A stretch of 5,644 bases of DNA from a virus (IMGVR_UViG_2684622552_000005:1-5644), one strand, 5' to 3'; counted from the first letter of the stretch, positions 1 to 5,644 are shown. Translations and numbers: made by a program. Notes: generated by a model from the sequence alone, not told the origin.

Positions 1-568
1 TATCGCGTCCTCAACAATGAGTTTTGTGATGCGGTGCCTGGTGCCTCCAGGTGACGTTAACCAGTTAACAATTAACGCCGGATACAGAGAATCCACCCAT
101 AACACTGTTTTTGGTTTTAACTGTTCCGCGTGCGCTTAGCCGCATTCACCGCATCACAAAATTCACTTTAAAAAGGGCGGCAGAGCAGTCACGGAGTAAA
201 ACTGATACCGCCAAACGTCACCAGAAAATTGATAACAGAGGGCGTTGCAGCGGGGTTGTCACTTAAGCGTATGGTCAACCTGACAACCCGGTGTCCTCAA
301 CGGGGGAAGGAATAACCCCGCCATACTTACCGCCGCGCCATTTCGCGGATTGCCACAACCGGAAGCGCACGGTCGACGAAAATTTAACGACAGGCTATCT
401 ATGAACCAGCTACCTCGCCGTGCGCTTTCGCGTTATGGTCTGACTTTTCAGGGAAATATCCTTTCAGTAAACTGTCAGTGCCGGATGCTCACCCGTGTCC
501 GGCGCACGCACTCCACCTCACCCGTGGAGAACTCCTTAATTACCAACCTTAGCTTCGTTGGTTAGCTA

Positions 569-946: not shown

Positions 947-1183
947 TCACTCACCTGAGTTTCTTTCCAGCCAGCGACGGGCACCATTTTCGGTTTTAAA
1001 CGTTTTGCTTTTGGTATACGTCATCGCGGTGAACGTACCGTCCTGGTTGGGGAACACGCCACATACCAGAGATTCGCTGTTGCCAAGATCGATAGTATCC
1101 ATGCTGACCTCATTTCCCCTTAACGCCGGGGTAGCGGAACAAAAACCTGCTGCATAGTTATTAAAGTTGAACCCTGCCGTCAT
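947..1183 (-). CDS. Hypothetical small prophage protein (78 aa), first gene of the leftward operon
   Basis: ATG-initiated ORF (cat at 1181-1183) with GAGG about 9 nt upstream; lies directly downstream (leftward) of the putative OL/PL region. No recognisable motif. Confidence 0.5.
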   Translation of the reverse strand: MTAGFNFNNYAAGFCSATPALRGNEVSMDTIDLGNSESLVCGVFPNQDGTFTAMTYTKSKTFKTENGARRWLERNSGE

Positions 1184-1367: not shown

Positions 1368-1787
1368 CTATGATGCGTTTTGTGCTTTCTTTTTACGGAT
1401 TTCTTCGTAGATCATATTGTAATACTGTTTTTTCTCTTCAAGAGTTTTTAATAATTTATCCGCTTCACTTTCTGGCAGTTCGTCTAAGAGATCTAAAAAA
1501 ATACGTTGTCGTGGCGTTAGAACCCTTGTTTCATAACTGGAGGCTGTGTTCGTTGATGATGAAACGATACCATCCATCCATCCCCGGGGTAACCCAAAGG
1601 ACTCTTCGATAATCTCCACCATATCATCAGCGATCCGTTTTTTTCCCTTTTTCCCCTCTGGGTACAACATTCTTGATACATAAGAAGGCTCGCGCCCGAT
1701 CTTTCTGGCCACGTTAACCGCTTTACCATCGCATTTCTCATCACGAATTTTGATGAGTTGCTGTCGTCTAAATTCATATTTGTCCAT
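1368..1787 (-). CDS. Prophage immunity repressor, HTH DNA-binding protein (CI / RacR-like functional analogue; no LexA-like peptidase domain)
   Basis: 139-aa ATG-initiated ORF. N-terminal segment (KAVNVARKIGREPSYVSRMLYPEGKKGKKRI) looks like a Cro/CI-type helix-turn-helix; the C-terminal half is charged and helical (likely dimerisation). Sits divergent from a Cro-like gene and between two operator clusters, the position of a lambdoid repressor. Confidence 0.75.
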   Translation of the reverse strand: MDKYEFRRQQLIKIRDEKCDGKAVNVARKIGREPSYVSRMLYPEGKKGKKRIADDMVEIIEESFGLPRGWMDGIVSSSTNTASSYETRVLTPRQRIFLDLLDELPESEADKLLKTLEEKKQYYNMIYEEIRKKKAQNAS

Positions 1788-1807: not shown

Positions 1808-1862
1808 TACCGCAAGGTAAACAACCTATGGGTATTGACTTTTGTTTACCTGTGGGTATTCT
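1808..1862. promoter_or_regulatory. Putative OR/PR: three operator-like sites (TACCGCAAGGTA 1808-1819; AACCTATGGGTA 1823-1834; TACCTGTGGGTA 1847-1858) overlapping a rightward sigma70-like promoter (-35 TTGACT 1835-1840, 16-bp spacer, -10 TATTCT 1857-1862)
   Basis: Seen in sequence. The sites share the TACC-N4-GGTA pattern with the OL sites. The promoter hexamers are positioned to drive ydaS (AAGGAG Shine-Dalgarno at 1877-1882, ATG at 1888). The three-site arrangement resembles lambda OR1-3. Confidence 0.5.
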
Positions 1863-1887: not shown

Positions 1888-2169
1888 ATGGAAGAATTAA
1901 GAATATTTCTCAATTCTCTTTCGTCAGATGAACAGCGTATGTTTGCATGCGAGTGTGGTACCAGCATCGGTTATCTAAGAAAGGCATTGAGTAAAGGTCA
2001 AGTGTTAGGGGCATCGTTATGTGTCCTTATTGAGCGAGCCAGTAATGGTGAAGTTACACGTCAGCAACTAAGGCCTTTTGATTGGATGAATATTTGGCCC
2101 GAGCTGGAAGATACCAAAACGTTAACACAACCACTTTCTAGGAGCTTGATTCATGAAAATCAAGCATGA
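1888..2169 (+). CDS. ydaS: YdaS-family Cro-like HTH regulator (93 aa)
   Basis: ATG with AAGGAG Shine-Dalgarno; divergent from the repressor. C-terminal motif IERASNGEVTRQQLRPFDW matches, from memory, the conserved IERAT.GEV...LRPD..W segment of Rac YdaS-family proteins. Its 3' end overlaps the start of the next gene by 17 nt. Confidence 0.7.
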   Translation: MEELRIFLNSLSSDEQRMFACECGTSIGYLRKALSKGQVLGASLCVLIERASNGEVTRQQLRPFDWMNIWPELEDTKTLTQPLSRSLIHENQA

Positions 2170-2578
2170 ACACATCCGCATGGCGATGAATGCCTGGGCG
2201 CATCCGGACGGTGAAAAAGTTCCGGCAGCTGAAATAACCAGGGCTTATTTTGAACTGGGTATGACGTTCCCAGAACTGTATGACGACAGCCATCCGGAAG
2301 CCCTGGCTCGCAATACCCAGAAAATTTTCCGCTGGGTAGAGAAAGACACCCCTGATGCAGTTGAAAAAATTCAGGCGTTGTTACCAGCGATCGAAAAGGC
2401 AATGCCACCTTTGCTGGTGGCCAGAATGCGCAGCCACAGTTCAGCTTATTTTCGGGAGCTGGTGGAGACGCGGGAGCGACTGGTGAGAGATGCTGATGAT
2501 TTTGTCGCAGTGGCAATCGCCGGTTTCAATCAGATGAACCGTGGTGGCCCGGCAGGAAATGCTGTGGCAGTGCATTGA
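2153..2578 (+). CDS. ydaT: YdaT-family protein (141 aa), CII-like regulator / reported toxic component of the Rac ydaS-ydaT module
   Basis: Starts MKIKHEHI, as I recall for E. coli Rac YdaT. AGGAG Shine-Dalgarno 8 nt upstream. Overlaps the ydaS stop, indicating co-transcription. Family assignment is from memory and positional context, not a search. Confidence 0.7.
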   Translation: MKIKHEHIRMAMNAWAHPDGEKVPAAEITRAYFELGMTFPELYDDSHPEALARNTQKIFRWVEKDTPDAVEKIQALLPAIEKAMPPLLVARMRSHSSAYFRELVETRERLVRDADDFVAVAIAGFNQMNRGGPAGNAVAVH

Positions 2579-2649: not shown

Positions 2650-3720
2650 ATGGCTAACGCCTGGCTCAGATTATGGCATGACATGCCAAATGACCCTAAG
2701 TGGCGAACAATTGCCAGGGTGTCAGGGCAGCCAATTGCAACAGTGATGGCAGTGTATATCCACCTCCTGGTGAGCGCGTCACGAAATGTCACGCGAGGTC
2801 ACATTGATGTCACGACAGAAGATTTGGCAAGTGCGCTCGACGTGACAGAAGAGGTAATTGATTCAATTTTGCAGACGATGCAGGGGCGGGTACTTGATGG
2901 TGATTTAATCACTGGATGGGAAAAACGCCAGGTGCTTAAAGAGGACAACGGTAATATTTCGCAAACCGCAAAATCTCCTGCAGAGCGCAAGAGGGCGCAG
3001 CGAGAGAGGGAAAGAAAGCGGGAACAAAATGGCGATTGTCACGGCGCGTCACGAAATGTCACGCACATGTCACGACGAGTCACGACAGATAAAGATACAG
3101 ATAAAGATACAGATCAAGAAGATCAAAACACTATGGTCCATGGCGTAAAAAACGCCACGAACCAGGCAGGGGATGTTCAGACCGTCAATCCTGGTCAGCC
3201 AGCAGGCACGACACCGGAAGCCGATTCAGCGTATGCGCTGAAAGCCGATTCGGGCGCTGTGCAGCAGGTGATGACCCAAAGGCCGGAACAATCACACCAA
3301 CTGCAGCAGCCTGAAGCCGATTCCGCCATTCAGCGGGAAGCCGATCGGGTAGTCCCGGAAAACACCGGGCTGTCTGTGGGACGAGTGGATTATCCGGATG
3401 TGTTCGAACAGGTCTGGCGGGAGTACCCGTTGCGTGCCGGAGCAAACCCGAAGAAATCCGCTTTCAGTGCCTGGAAGGCCAGATTACGCGAGGGGGTGCC
3501 ACCAGAGGCCATGCTGGATGGCGTGAGGCGTTACGCAAGATACTTGGCGGCTACCGGGAAAACGGGAACGGAATTTGTTCAGCGAGCGACGACGTTTTTT
3601 GGACCGGACCGGAATTTTGAGAACCCCTGGTTGCTCCCGGTAAGCGGCACGAACAACCAGCGTTGTGTGAATCATATTTCTGAACCGGATAACGAAATTC
3701 CGCCGGGCTTCAGGGGGTAA
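2650..3720 (+). CDS. Phage replication initiator-like protein (lambda O-like organisation) with iterons inside the coding sequence
   Basis: The ORF track starts at GTG 2644; ATG 2650 with GAGG 5 nt upstream is the more likely start. The C-terminal region (VFEQVWREYPLRAGANPKKSAFSAWKARL...FVQRATTFFGPDRNFENPW) resembles the conserved C-terminal domain of phage replication proteins. Two clusters of GTCACG repeats and an AT-rich repeat lie within the gene. It occupies the position after cro/cII analogues. Confidence 0.7.
   Translation: MANAWLRLWHDMPNDPKWRTIARVSGQPIATVMAVYIHLLVSASRNVTRGHIDVTTEDLASALDVTEEVIDSILQTMQGRVLDGDLITGWEKRQVLKEDNGNISQTAKSPAERKRAQRERERKREQNGDCHGASRNVTHMSRRVTTDKDTDKDTDQEDQNTMVHGVKNATNQAGDVQTVNPGQPAGTTPEADSAYALKADSGAVQQVMTQRPEQSHQLQQPEADSAIQREADRVVPENTGLSVGRVDYPDVFEQVWREYPLRAGANPKKSAFSAWKARLREGVPPEAMLDGVRRYARYLAATGKTGTEFVQRATTFFGPDRNFENPWLLPVSGTNNQRCVNHISEPDNEIPPGFRG
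2778..2814. repeat. Iteron cluster 1: four copies of GTCAC(G/A) at 10-11 bp spacing (2778, 2788, 2798, 2809)
   Basis: Seen in sequence: cgTCACGaaatgTCACGcgaggTCACAttgatgTCACGacag. Helical-turn periodicity is typical of initiator-binding iterons. Confidence 0.55.
3038..3110. repeat. Iteron cluster 2 (five GTCACG copies at 3038, 3048, 3058, 3069, 3079) followed by a tandem AGATAAAGATAC x2 AT-rich repeat (3087-3110): putative prophage replication origin
   Basis: Seen in sequence. The first 21 bp of this cluster (gcgcgtcacgaaatgtcacgc) are identical to the start of cluster 1, about 270 bp upstream. An iteron array plus adjacent A+T-rich tract inside the initiator gene mirrors ori-lambda inside gene O. 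Confidence 0.55.
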
Positions 3721-3760
3721 GTGTTAATTTCTGGTCATGAGGTAATTTTCAGGAGGGCTT

Positions 3761-4186
3761 GTGGCAAAAGTTTTTACACAAGAAGAGCGGGAAAAAATTA
3801 AAGGGCAGGTTGTTGAACTCGTACGCCAGAGTGGGCGCGAGACGTTACGACAACTGGAAACTAAAACTGGGGCAACAAGATATCTGATGAGCGTTCTGGC
3901 CAGAGAGCTGGTTGCCAGTGGCGATGTATACAACTCTGGTTACGGGTTATTCCCGTCTGAACAGGCGCGTAAGGACTGGCAAAATGCCCGTAAAAAGCTC
4001 TCAAGGGCAAAGCTGAAGAAACCATCTGCGGTTGATCCGGACCTTATCTGGTCATTACCTGACGGAGAAATACGTCGCTACGATAGTTGTCTAAACATAA
4101 TCTGTCGCGAGTGCCGGAAGAGCGAAGTTATGCAGCGCATTCTGGCATTTTATCAGGGAAATGTTAGGTATTTTAGACGTTACTAG
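3761..4186 (+). CDS. Hypothetical protein (141 aa) of unknown function in the slot where a helicase loader is expected
   Basis: GTG start with a strong AGGAGG Shine-Dalgarno 4 nt upstream, 40 nt after the initiator gene. No Walker A motif seen. Contains a C-x4-C-x2-C cluster (CLNIICRECRK). Composition resembles the flanking phage genes, not the AT-rich gene downstream. Confidence 0.55.
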   Translation: MAKVFTQEEREKIKGQVVELVRQSGRETLRQLETKTGATRYLMSVLARELVASGDVYNSGYGLFPSEQARKDWQNARKKLSRAKLKKPSAVDPDLIWSLPDGEIRRYDSCLNIICRECRKSEVMQRILAFYQGNVRYFRRY

Positions 4187-4413: not shown

Positions 4414-5439
4414 ATGGATACTTTTCATAATATTTTGCTTGAGCACATAGACAGCCTTTTAAAAGAGAGACTTGATTTATCTGGTGACGCTGATATCGAA
4501 AAAGAAATTAATAACCTAATTCCCAAAATAGCCATTGTCGTTAAAAAATCTCTTATTGGCTCGGCCAATGCAATGCTTAGAGAACATCGTTCTCTTTGTG
4601 ATGAATTTGTTGAGAGAAATATTTCAAGATGGGCAGAGGCTTTTGATTTGCTCGAAACACTTATAGTGATATGCACGGAGTCCGGTGAAGAGTTCAATCG
4701 TTCTTATAGACCACAAGCTGCCTCTGAAGAGGATGTGGTTTTTGATTTAGTCGTTCGGCATCACGCAAGAGCTTGCCACATCGCCAACGAAATTTTGTGT
4801 CTCTTAAAGAATGGATTTGCAGATGCTGCCCAAGCGAGATGGCGAGCACTTCATGAGGTAGCGGCCACAGCTATGTTTATAGCAAAGCATGGAAAAGAGT
4901 GTGCTGAGCGCTTTTACTACCATGAAGTGGTTGATTCATATACTGGAATGTTGGAACACAAAAAGTACGAGCACCGGTTAGAAGCAAAAGGTCCAACTAT
5001 TGAAGAAATAGCTGAGTGTAAAGTTCAATTTGATCTATTAATAAAAAAATACGGCAAAAAATATGCAGATAATTATGGGTGGGCATCTTATATTTTCCCT
5101 AACCATAATAAAGTGGGGTTTGGAGCTATTGAGAAAGATGTTCAGTTAGAACACATGCGCCCTTATTATAAGTGGGCGAGTCAGAATGTACACACCGGTT
5201 CCAAGGCAATGAGAAATAGGCTTGGTCTCTGTGAAACTGGTGATGATATATTATTGGTCGGGCAAAGTGATTCAGGAATGGCTGATCCAGCCCATGCTAC
5301 TGCTATTAGTTTGATGCAGATTACTGTGACACTTTTATTCTTAAAACCAACCATTGATCATGCCGTCATTTCAAAAATAATACAGGATTATTCTGATGAG
5401 ATTGGAAATGTATTTCTTAAAATTGATAAGGGTAATTAA
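4414..5439 (+). CDS. AT-rich cargo ORF of unknown function (about 341 aa from ATG 4414; the track start at 4402 is a TTG); candidate accessory / anti-phage protein
   Basis: Long uninterrupted ORF whose base composition is visibly more A+T-rich than the flanking prophage genes. It has its own upstream noncoding region. No transmembrane stretch, P-loop or other recognisable catalytic motif was seen by eye. One R-x6-H segment (RHHARACH, about 4756-4779) is noted only as a weak HEPN-like hint. It lies between the replication module and an IS element, a typical prophage moron/defence-island position. Confidence 0.75.
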   Translation: MDTFHNILLEHIDSLLKERLDLSGDADIEKEINNLIPKIAIVVKKSLIGSANAMLREHRSLCDEFVERNISRWAEAFDLLETLIVICTESGEEFNRSYRPQAASEEDVVFDLVVRHHARACHIANEILCLLKNGFADAAQARWRALHEVAATAMFIAKHGKECAERFYYHEVVDSYTGMLEHKKYEHRLEAKGPTIEEIAECKVQFDLLIKKYGKKYADNYGWASYIFPNHNKVGFGAIEKDVQLEHMRPYYKWASQNVHTGSKAMRNRLGLCETGDDILLVGQSDSGMADPAHATAISLMQITVTLLFLKPTIDHAVISKIIQDYSDEIGNVFLKIDKGN

Positions 5440-5518: not shown

Positions 5519-5644
5519 TGAATCGCCACGGGTTTAACAGACACCTCAGAGTCATTTAAGATGGCTTAAAGAGAGGTGCCCATGAGCGGTAAGCGTTATC
5601 CCGAAGAGTTTAAAACTGAAGCAGTCAAACAGGTTGTTGCTCAA
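5519..5644 (+). mobile_element. Left end of an IS3-family insertion sequence (putative left inverted repeat starting TGAATCGCCACGGGTTT at 5519), truncated by the window edge
   Basis: Begins with TG and is GC-rich, like IS3-family terminal repeats as I recall them. It lies 63 bp upstream of an OrfA-like start preceded by AGAGAGGTG, similar to the spacing and Shine-Dalgarno context I recall for IS3. Exact boundary is uncertain; the right end is not in the window. Confidence 0.55.
5582..5644 (+). CDS. IS3-family transposase OrfA, N-terminal fragment (continues beyond the window)
   Basis: Hand translation MSGKRYPEEFKTEAVKQVVAQ matches the characteristic N-terminus of IS3-family OrfA proteins (K-R-x-[YF]-x-x-E-F-K-x-E-A-V). 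ATG at 5582 with a GAGAGGTG Shine-Dalgarno upstream. Confidence 0.65.
   Translation, partial: MSGKRYPEEFKTEAVKQVVAQ

Follow-up and report, generated by a model that had tools for sequence, protein, structure and literature searches.

Repeat arrays within the initiator gene

The DNA analysed here, hereafter the window, is a viral stretch of 5,644 nucleotides (nt; IMGVR_UViG_2684622552_000005:1-5644) and corresponds to the region of immunity and early replication of a lambdoid, Rac-like Escherichia coli prophage. Its genes and other features are collected in Table 1. We focus on the gene of a replisome-organizer-like initiator and on two arrays of short repeats (iterons) located inside it, which an initial annotation had proposed to form, together with an A+T-rich repeat, a replication origin.

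Table 1. Features of the window, with positions counted from its first nucleotide.
Feature	Position	Strand	Remarks
DicF antisense small RNA, full length	175-226	-	Rfam RF00039, 76.7 bits, E = 3e-16
DUF1391 gene	947-1183	-	
Palindrome TACCCAYRGGTA, five copies	1289-1300, 1314-1325, 1781-1792, 1823-1834, 1847-1858		At most two mismatches; likely operators
Repressor gene	1368-1787	-	
YdaS/Cro-like gene	1888-2169	+	
YdaT/CII-like gene	2153-2578	+	
Initiator gene, 356 amino acids	2650-3720	+	Replisome-organizer-like; open reading frame list and profile matches
21-bp string GCGCGTCACGAAATGTCACGC, two identical copies	2774-2794, 3044-3064	+	Occurs exactly twice
Iteron cluster 1, four GTCAC(G/A)	2778-2814	+	Starts 2778, 2788, 2798 (GTCACA), 2809; codons 43-55
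Inverted single iteron	2841-2846	-	CGTGAC on the + strand; codons 64-66 (D-V-T)
Iteron cluster 2, five GTCACG	3038-3084	+	Starts 3038, 3048, 3058, 3069, 3079; linker-coding segment
A+T-rich purine-strand tract, (ACAGATAAAGAT) x2.9 then ACAGATCAAGAAGATCAAAACAC	3085-3133		Candidate DNA-unwinding element and module-exchange joint
GATC (Dam) sites, two	3112-3115, 3121-3124		Within the A+T-rich tract
Inverted repeat, 13-nt arms, 5-nt loop	3134-3164		Just past the A+T-rich tract
C-terminal tail of the initiator	3646-3717		Amino acids 333-356, ending ..RCVNHISEPDNEIPPGFRG / ..EPDNEIPPGFRG
DUF977/Ren-like gene	3761-4186	+	
DUF5677 gene	4414-5439	+	
Start of transposase-like open reading frame (MSGKRYPEEFKTEAVKQVV..)	5582-5644	+	Weak HTH_Tnp_1 match, E = 0.0018

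The positions of the motif confirm the nine direct copies of GTCAC(G/A) reported in the initial annotation, arranged in two clusters of four and five that lie about 220 base pairs (bp) apart. The count had missed a tenth copy, which is inverted. The spacing of the hexamers is 10, 10 and 11 bp in cluster 1 and 10, 10, 11 and 10 bp in cluster 2; therefore, successive copies fall on the same side of the helix. Such an accumulation is not expected by chance, with about 0.13 same-strand copies of GTCACR expected in 307 bp (Poisson P(>=9) = 2e-14), and the rest of the window has only two copies outside the arrays, both strands counted. In the complete 46-kilobase (kb) genome of the related phage Tritos, the two in-gene clusters are the only sites with at least three GTCAC in 60 bp. 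DnaA boxes (TTWTNCACA with at most one mismatch) are not enriched, with 8 matches against 12.8 expected, and none was found beside the iterons.

The 21-bp leader shared by the two clusters, GCGCGTCACGAAATGTCACGC, is indeed present in exact copies at 2774 and 3044. This identity between clusters has no counterpart in the related loci L001 and L002, and thus looks like a local homogenisation between the clusters of this gene.

Selection on the DNA of the arrays

The hexamers start at codon positions 3, 1, 2 and 1 in cluster 1 and 2, 3, 1, 3 and 1 in cluster 2, and are translated as S-R, V-T, G-H or C-H. The peptide read-outs quoted initially are correct. Since they are read in all three codon phases, they do not correspond to one repeated peptide. 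We compared them in a set of 47 loci carrying relatives of the initiator N-terminal domain (N-domain), with one genome per species. The motif GTCAC is found at exactly gene nt 129, 139, 149 and 160 across about 20 gamma- and betaproteobacterial genera, whose genome GC content ranges from 0.34 to 0.70, and the inverted copy GTGAC is kept at gene nt 193 in most of the loci of the GTCACG type. The second array of these relatives, with three to five copies near gene nt 387-418, always ends directly at an A+T-rich tract, while the 2.4-kb flanks contain only zero to three GTCAC per strand in nearly all loci. Within clusters, 82 spacings of 10 bp and 25 of 11 bp were counted, corresponding to approximately one helical turn and not to a multiple of three.

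The codon usage under the hexamers was examined in 19 non-redundant homologous loci covering the same range of genome GC (0.34-0.70). The codons GTC and ACG, each at two positions, as well as GGT and CAC, are used in 19/19 loci, and TCA in 18/19. The mean codon entropy is consequently very low under the hexamers (0.04 bit), compared with 1.52 bit at the 28 other columns where the amino acid is conserved (Mann-Whitney p = 2.7e-5). The hexamer codons are frozen while their conserved neighbours are scrambled, and a purely protein-level explanation is therefore ruled out. A recent transfer of a short segment is argued against as well, because the spacer codon of R49, within cluster 1, varies freely (CGA, CGT, CGC and CGG) and residues 52-53 are variable. 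The initial annotation had named, as an outcome that would refute the origin, repeats arising from a duplication of coding sequence unconserved as DNA; on the contrary, their conservation exceeds what the protein requires, as seen from the frozen synonymous sites.

The A+T-rich tract

Cluster 2 is followed by the A+T-rich repeat noted initially, although the 12-bp unit ACAGATAAAGAT is repeated 2.9 times (3085-3119, Tandem Repeats Finder) and not twice. In the window, the 40 nt past the last hexamer are 70% A+T, compared with 46% for the gene. All 23 loci of the GTCACG type present the same arrangement, where the last hexamer is directly followed by (C/A)(T/C)AGATAAAGATA..., and the 40 nt after the last iteron have a mean of 73% A+T, compared with 45% for the gene (Wilcoxon p = 2.4e-7). 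This also holds in a genome with 70% GC. Codon choice follows the same trend: in the 14 codons after cluster 2, aspartate is encoded by GAT in 92% of the cases, against 47% elsewhere (Fisher p = 8e-20), and lysine by AAA in 85%, against 51% elsewhere (Fisher p = 8e-11). The divergent subfamilies with CGAACG or GTAACG repeats (see below) share a CAGATA(A/C)AGATA tract. Taken together, the comparisons between loci show that purifying selection acts at the DNA level on both the hexamers and the A+T-rich tract.

The tract is also the joint of a mosaic, as the similarity of the N-domain to its relatives stops around position 3107 and that of the C-terminal domain (C-domain) starts around 3125.

Several other elements were observed in or next to the tract. 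Two GATC sites are located within it, and several enterobacterial relatives, together with Rac, carry AAAGATCT at the position of the Dam site; a link of these sites to methylation or to SeqA control is possible. The inverted repeat just past the tract scores as an intrinsic-terminator-like site on the minus strand and is partly conserved in the O157:H7 prophage gene L003, which shares the C-terminal module. It could be a part of the origin or an antisense terminator. In genes with a YdaU-type C-module (L004 at 3120-3160, L011, L014, L016 and L019), paired C-runs (CCCCCCnTAAnCCCCCC, encoding PPLNPP) are found directly after the tract in hosts of very different GC content.

Iteron dialects and module exchange

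Divergent members of the N-domain family lack GTCACG and display other hexamers instead, namely CGAACG(C) (e.g., L032, L035, L036, L038, L046 and L048) or GTAACG (L025, L027, L034 and L040). These repeats occupy the two gene positions of the GTCACG clusters, mostly with an identical 10-bp phasing, although the spacing is irregular in L025 and L027. Both clusters switch hexamer together between subfamilies, and a word repeated with a 10/11-bp period and common to both regions was recovered in 34/44 homologous loci. The GTCACG, GTAACG, CGAACG and AAGGGGCTT types accompany different N-domain subfamilies. The initial annotation had regarded the duplicated block as an oddity, perhaps reflecting an origin duplication. 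This does not agree with the presence of two clusters at the same gene positions in so many loci of many genera: judging from this distribution, the two-cluster layout is old and family-wide, and not a recent duplication.

The combination of N-domain and iterons is also found with other C-domains. The loci L001 and L002 have the same N-domain as the initiator (84-88% nucleotide identity) joined to a DnaT-type C-domain, and retain the GTCACG arrays; cluster 1 contains six copies there, the additional two hexamers corresponding to seven added residues in the loop. Conversely, the C-terminal half of L003 is 90% identical to that of the initiator, while its N-terminal half has no BLAST similarity to it; in L003, AAGGGGCTT repeats spaced by 11 bp form two clusters separated by 256 bp, and an A-rich repeat of low complexity comes next. 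These sequence mosaics show that the cassette has been exchanged as a unit with different C-terminal modules.

Other arrangements were found in a Serratia metagenome-assembled genome (L042) and in Pantoea (L050), where the N-domain is fused to another middle region, weakly resembling MUG113/GIY-YIG (E = 0.0036). In the gene nt ~320-470 region of these two loci, ACTACG/CGTAGT repeats near nt 326-360 replace the two-cluster iterons.

The initiator protein

The ATG at position 2650 agrees with the start annotated for the initiator in the phages Tritos (L052) and Evi (L053). Over its full length, the protein matches phrog_3729, "replication initiation protein" (E = 1.8e-256), and it is also matched by the PHROG "replisome organizer" families 4880 (E = 5e-6) and 5968 (E = 2e-4). 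The match to TIGR01714 (phage_rep_org_N) is weak (E = 0.016; 15.4 bits for a cut-off of 49.8), and no Pfam family was recovered for the 356 amino acids at E <= 0.01. Likewise, sequence searches did not retrieve any relative of the N-domain with a solved structure.

We modelled the protein with AlphaFold2 from a 40-sequence alignment, obtaining a mean predicted local distance difference test (pLDDT) of 63, with 86-97 in the blocks of the N-domain. The predicted architecture consists of a winged-helix-like N-domain (amino acids 1-98), a basic helix (110-127), a disordered linker, a helical C-domain and a DnaT-like tail. The modelled N-domain contains helices at 4-14, 16-25, 29-45, 56-63 and 67-77, followed by a beta wing, an arrangement resembling a winged helix. 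Its sub-threshold Foldseek matches, suggestive only, are mostly winged-helix regulators.

In the model, cluster 1 maps to the terminal part of helix 3 plus the next loop, inside the folded N-domain, and the inverted copy to the turn between the last two N-domain helices. In contrast, cluster 2 and the DKDT repeat encode a segment with pLDDT below 50, located after the basic helix. The proposal that the iterons encode a flexible linker is accordingly compatible with the model for cluster 2 and the DKDT repeat, which fall in the predicted disordered linker, but not for cluster 1. With cluster 1 in a loop and cluster 2 in a disordered linker, the constraints on the DNA appear to be placed where the protein tolerates them.

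The last 20-25 residues of the initiator match the extreme C-terminus of DnaT (PDB 6aep, E = 3e-4, and also 2ru8 and 9zbt; positions 156-179 of NCBIfam NF002770). The same tail is also found in Rac YdaU and in numerous relatives that otherwise differ in their C-domains. It may represent a portable peptide for docking onto the helicase-loading machinery of the host.

A candidate replication origin and its alternatives

From these observations, we consider it likely, with a probability of roughly 80%, that this lambdoid prophage has its vegetative replication origin at positions 2778-3133, inside the very gene that encodes its initiator. The sequence data are most likely explained by a two-part origin of the iteron type, with a candidate unwinding element at the domain boundary of the initiator. 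The GTCACG hexamers would be the iterons bound by the initiator, most likely via the N-domain or the adjoining basic helix. The array assembled at cluster 2 would open the duplex in the abutting (GATAMA)n tract, and the C-domain and the DnaT-like tail would then recruit the helicase-loading machinery of the host. Cluster 1 and the inverted copy would serve as a second binding array, about 220 bp upstream in the coding sequence of the winged helix, which probably joins cluster 2 in a larger nucleoprotein complex by looping or wrapping, or else regulates initiation.

Several observations weigh against this reading and must be considered when interpreting it. The distance between the first and the last hexamer ranges from 280 to 370 bp across loci and no helical phase is fixed between the clusters, which argues against a rigid looped geometry. 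The A+T enrichment of the tract in the window is moderate (64-70%), although it is the highest within the gene. As the iterons lie inside the coding sequence of the N-domain, their co-inheritance with it is physically forced and does not provide an independent proof that this domain is the binder. Furthermore, a Foldseek search of the PDB with the N-domain retrieved nothing at E <= 0.001, and the predicted helix-turn-helix has an acidic sequence (TEDLASALDVTEEVIDSIL), an uncommon property for a helix that reads DNA; the contacts with DNA may be located elsewhere, for example in the invariant N-terminal W/R/K helices or in the basic helix 110-127. Finally, a profile comparison with G38P, the organizer of phage SPP1, was negative (hhalign probability of 0.13).

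Among the alternatives, the one that best withstands the data is that the arrays bind a protein for a role other than replication initiation (autoregulation, a transcription roadblock, copy control by handcuffing, or the binding of another phage or host protein), the origin being elsewhere. The absence of an A+T-rich tract adjacent to cluster 1 would fit this idea, as would the case of SPP1 G38P, which has a second binding site distinct from the early origin (PMC6316719). Nevertheless, we regard it as unlikely for the arrays as a whole, although cluster 1 may have such a role. In every subfamily, cluster 2 abuts a tract that has stayed rich in A+T in spite of the composition of the genome, a signature of an unwinding element rather than of an operator, and the likely operators of the repressor in the window have a different, palindromic motif (TACCCAYRGGTA). 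In addition, GTCAC clusters are confined to these two arrays in the complete phage Tritos, and no other initiator-like gene was found in the replication module.

It is very unlikely that the (GATAMA)n tract is kept mainly as a microhomology for swapping N- and C-modules instead of as an unwinding element. The breakpoints with L001/L002, which have another C-domain, and with L003, which has another N-domain, are indeed located at 3107-3125, inside the tract, and Rac ydaU bears nearly the same AAAGATACAGATAAAGAT sequence. Yet a joint alone explains neither the A+T richness in genomes of 70% GC nor the strict juxtaposition of the tract to the last iteron; besides, the two roles are compatible.

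We give even less credit to a function of the conserved nucleotides in the mRNA, as a structure or a protein site controlling how the initiator message is translated or how stable it is. The hexamers do lie in sense orientation, and the fourth one could pair with the inverted copy in a 6-bp stem, but neither cluster, on either strand, folds better than shuffled sequences (z = -0.35 to -0.66), no Rfam family was detected at the clusters (in the window, Rfam only finds DicF, elsewhere), and the 10-11 nt phasing and the flanking A+T-rich tract are features of duplex DNA. The least credible alternative is a protein-level feature only, that is, a duplicated peptide or linker repeat with no DNA function. 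The peptides ASRNVTRGHxDVT and CHxxSRNVTxDKD are indeed highly conserved in the GTCACG-type subfamily, but the hexamer is read in three frames with a phasing that is not a multiple of three, its synonymous sites are frozen beside synonymously saturated conserved codons, and copy number shifts by whole 10-bp units that insert different amino acids.

A two-part origin embedded in the initiator gene leads to a further idea, which we put forward tentatively and consider rather doubtful: the initiator must bridge two iteron arrays that flank, and are partly within, the DNA encoding its own DNA-binding domain, so that the iteron dialect and the translated loops evolve as one self-referential unit. 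If so, the origin could not change its specificity without a part of the protein being rewritten, and vice versa, and the family would represent a natural series for the switching of initiator-origin specificity and the emergence of new incompatibility groups among beta- and gammaproteobacterial prophages.

More generally, once pinned down, this origin would yield a model of replication that can be tested for a major group of lambdoid prophages other than lambda, including relatives of Shiga toxin (Stx) phages, and would supply a candidate sequence anatomy for oriJ of Rac. It would also constitute a clean case of dual coding, where the synonymous sites of a protein segment are constrained by a DNA-binding function, which is relevant to recoding, to codon-based tests of selection and to the prediction of phage incompatibility.

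Gene neighbourhood and distribution

Near-identical initiator genes are present in the records of the phages Tritos and Evi and of several vB_Eco phages. DNA resembling at least part of the initiator gene region was detected in 2926 of the 5426 complete E. coli genomes, and at least 80% of it is covered in 1647. In RefSeq, the gene is mostly labelled "hypothetical protein", also "phage replisome organizer", and no origin feature is annotated. The replication modules of Stx phages have been catalogued but not dissected (PMC8044961, PMC8951638), and the papers on the Eru classification of their replication regions do not mention iterons. We found no description of this origin in the literature searched, although an earlier one is possible.

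The gene following the initiator differs between relatives. No helicase-loader gene follows it in the window (3721-4186), Tritos or Evi, the next gene being DUF977/Ren-like. The initiator is followed by a lambda-P-like gene in L001/L002 and by a DnaC-like ATPase gene in L003.

The left part of the window contains the small RNA DicF, which fits a Rac/Qin-like context and is also annotated in phage Tritos. Of the five copies of the palindrome TACCCAYRGGTA, for which the chance expectation is 0.8, two are located past the 3' end of the repressor gene and three in the divergent promoter region between the repressor and the cro-like gene; these likely represent operators of the OL and OR type, with a motif different from that of the GTCACG iterons. 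At the right end, a transposase-like open reading frame begins, and the prophage is probably interrupted by an insertion sequence beyond the DUF5677 gene on this side.

Comparison with known systems

In phage lambda, the iterons bound by the O protein are 19-bp inverted repeats arranged in one array, with four copies in lambda and six in Stx phages. In contrast, the repeats described here have 6-bp direct-repeat cores every 10-11 bp, and are divided between two arrays separated by about 220 bp, where lambda has longer iterons in a single contiguous array. Nevertheless, in ori-lambda, iterons and an A+T-rich tract are likewise placed midway along gene O, and additional iterons bring further residues into the protein, including in Stx-phage variants (PMC7466680). 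The two systems are therefore alike in having the origin, here a proposed one, inside the initiator gene, at the boundary of the N- and C-domains, with an iteron array followed by an A+T-rich tract; in both, the number of iterons varies with added residues and the N- and C-domains are exchanged as modules. The likeness to ori-lambda proposed in the initial annotation thus stands for the design, but does not extend to the protein family, as the initiator shows no sequence relationship to O (no Pfam hit), and the "DNA replication protein O" labels on some phage records are only annotations. Moreover, the phage type of the window, Tritos and Evi differs from lambda in lacking a P-type loader gene after the initiator.

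A similar design has been described in SPP1, where oriL consists of direct repeats bound by the organizer and an A+T-rich unwinding element inside gene 38 (PMC5737612, PMC6316719). In our case too, the repeats and the adjacent tract are located inside the initiator gene. The differences concern the second binding site of SPP1, oriR, which is 13 kb away and has no equivalent in phage Tritos, and the presence in SPP1 of its own loader and helicase, unlike this phage type, in which no loader gene follows the initiator.

The same genomic context is found in the Rac prophage, which has been reported to have an active origin, oriJ (PMC3945230). Rac and the window share the succession of DUF1391, repressor, YdaS, YdaT, initiator and DUF977 genes, with DicF nearby. 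In the ydaU gene of Rac, phased RTGTTSAAC repeats precede an almost identical AAAGATACAGATAAAGAT tract, and the gene product has the same IPPGFRG tail. However, the N-domain of YdaU is DUF1376 (E = 2.7e-26), which has no match in the initiator, and the iteron sequence is different. The BLAST similarity between YdaU and the initiator does not extend beyond the linker and the C-terminal tail, and Rac has a DnaC-like gene, ydaV, unlike the phage type of the window. In ydaU of E. coli K-12 Rac (L004, 3005-3125), the RTGTTSAAC repeats have a phasing of about 11 bp at 3042-3085, with one copy 33 bp upstream at 3009, and precede AATAAAGATACAGATAAAGATCT; further copies are located upstream, around 2763 and 2848. 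We propose these repeats and AATAAAGATACAGATAAAGATCT as a candidate, based on their arrangement, for the sequence anatomy of oriJ, for which no published description at the sequence level was found in the searchable literature.

Phage P4 offers a precedent for a two-part origin, as its ori and crr contain short octamer iterons split into two clusters; each cluster is required in cis, and the alpha protein binds to both. These clusters are kilobases apart and outside the coding sequence of the initiator's DNA-binding domain, and alpha, a primase-helicase, is unrelated to the initiator described here. The overall design is a familiar one, and what distinguishes the present locus is the combination of short hexamer iterons, two arrays in one coding sequence, conservation across beta- and gammaproteobacteria, and at least three iteron dialects.

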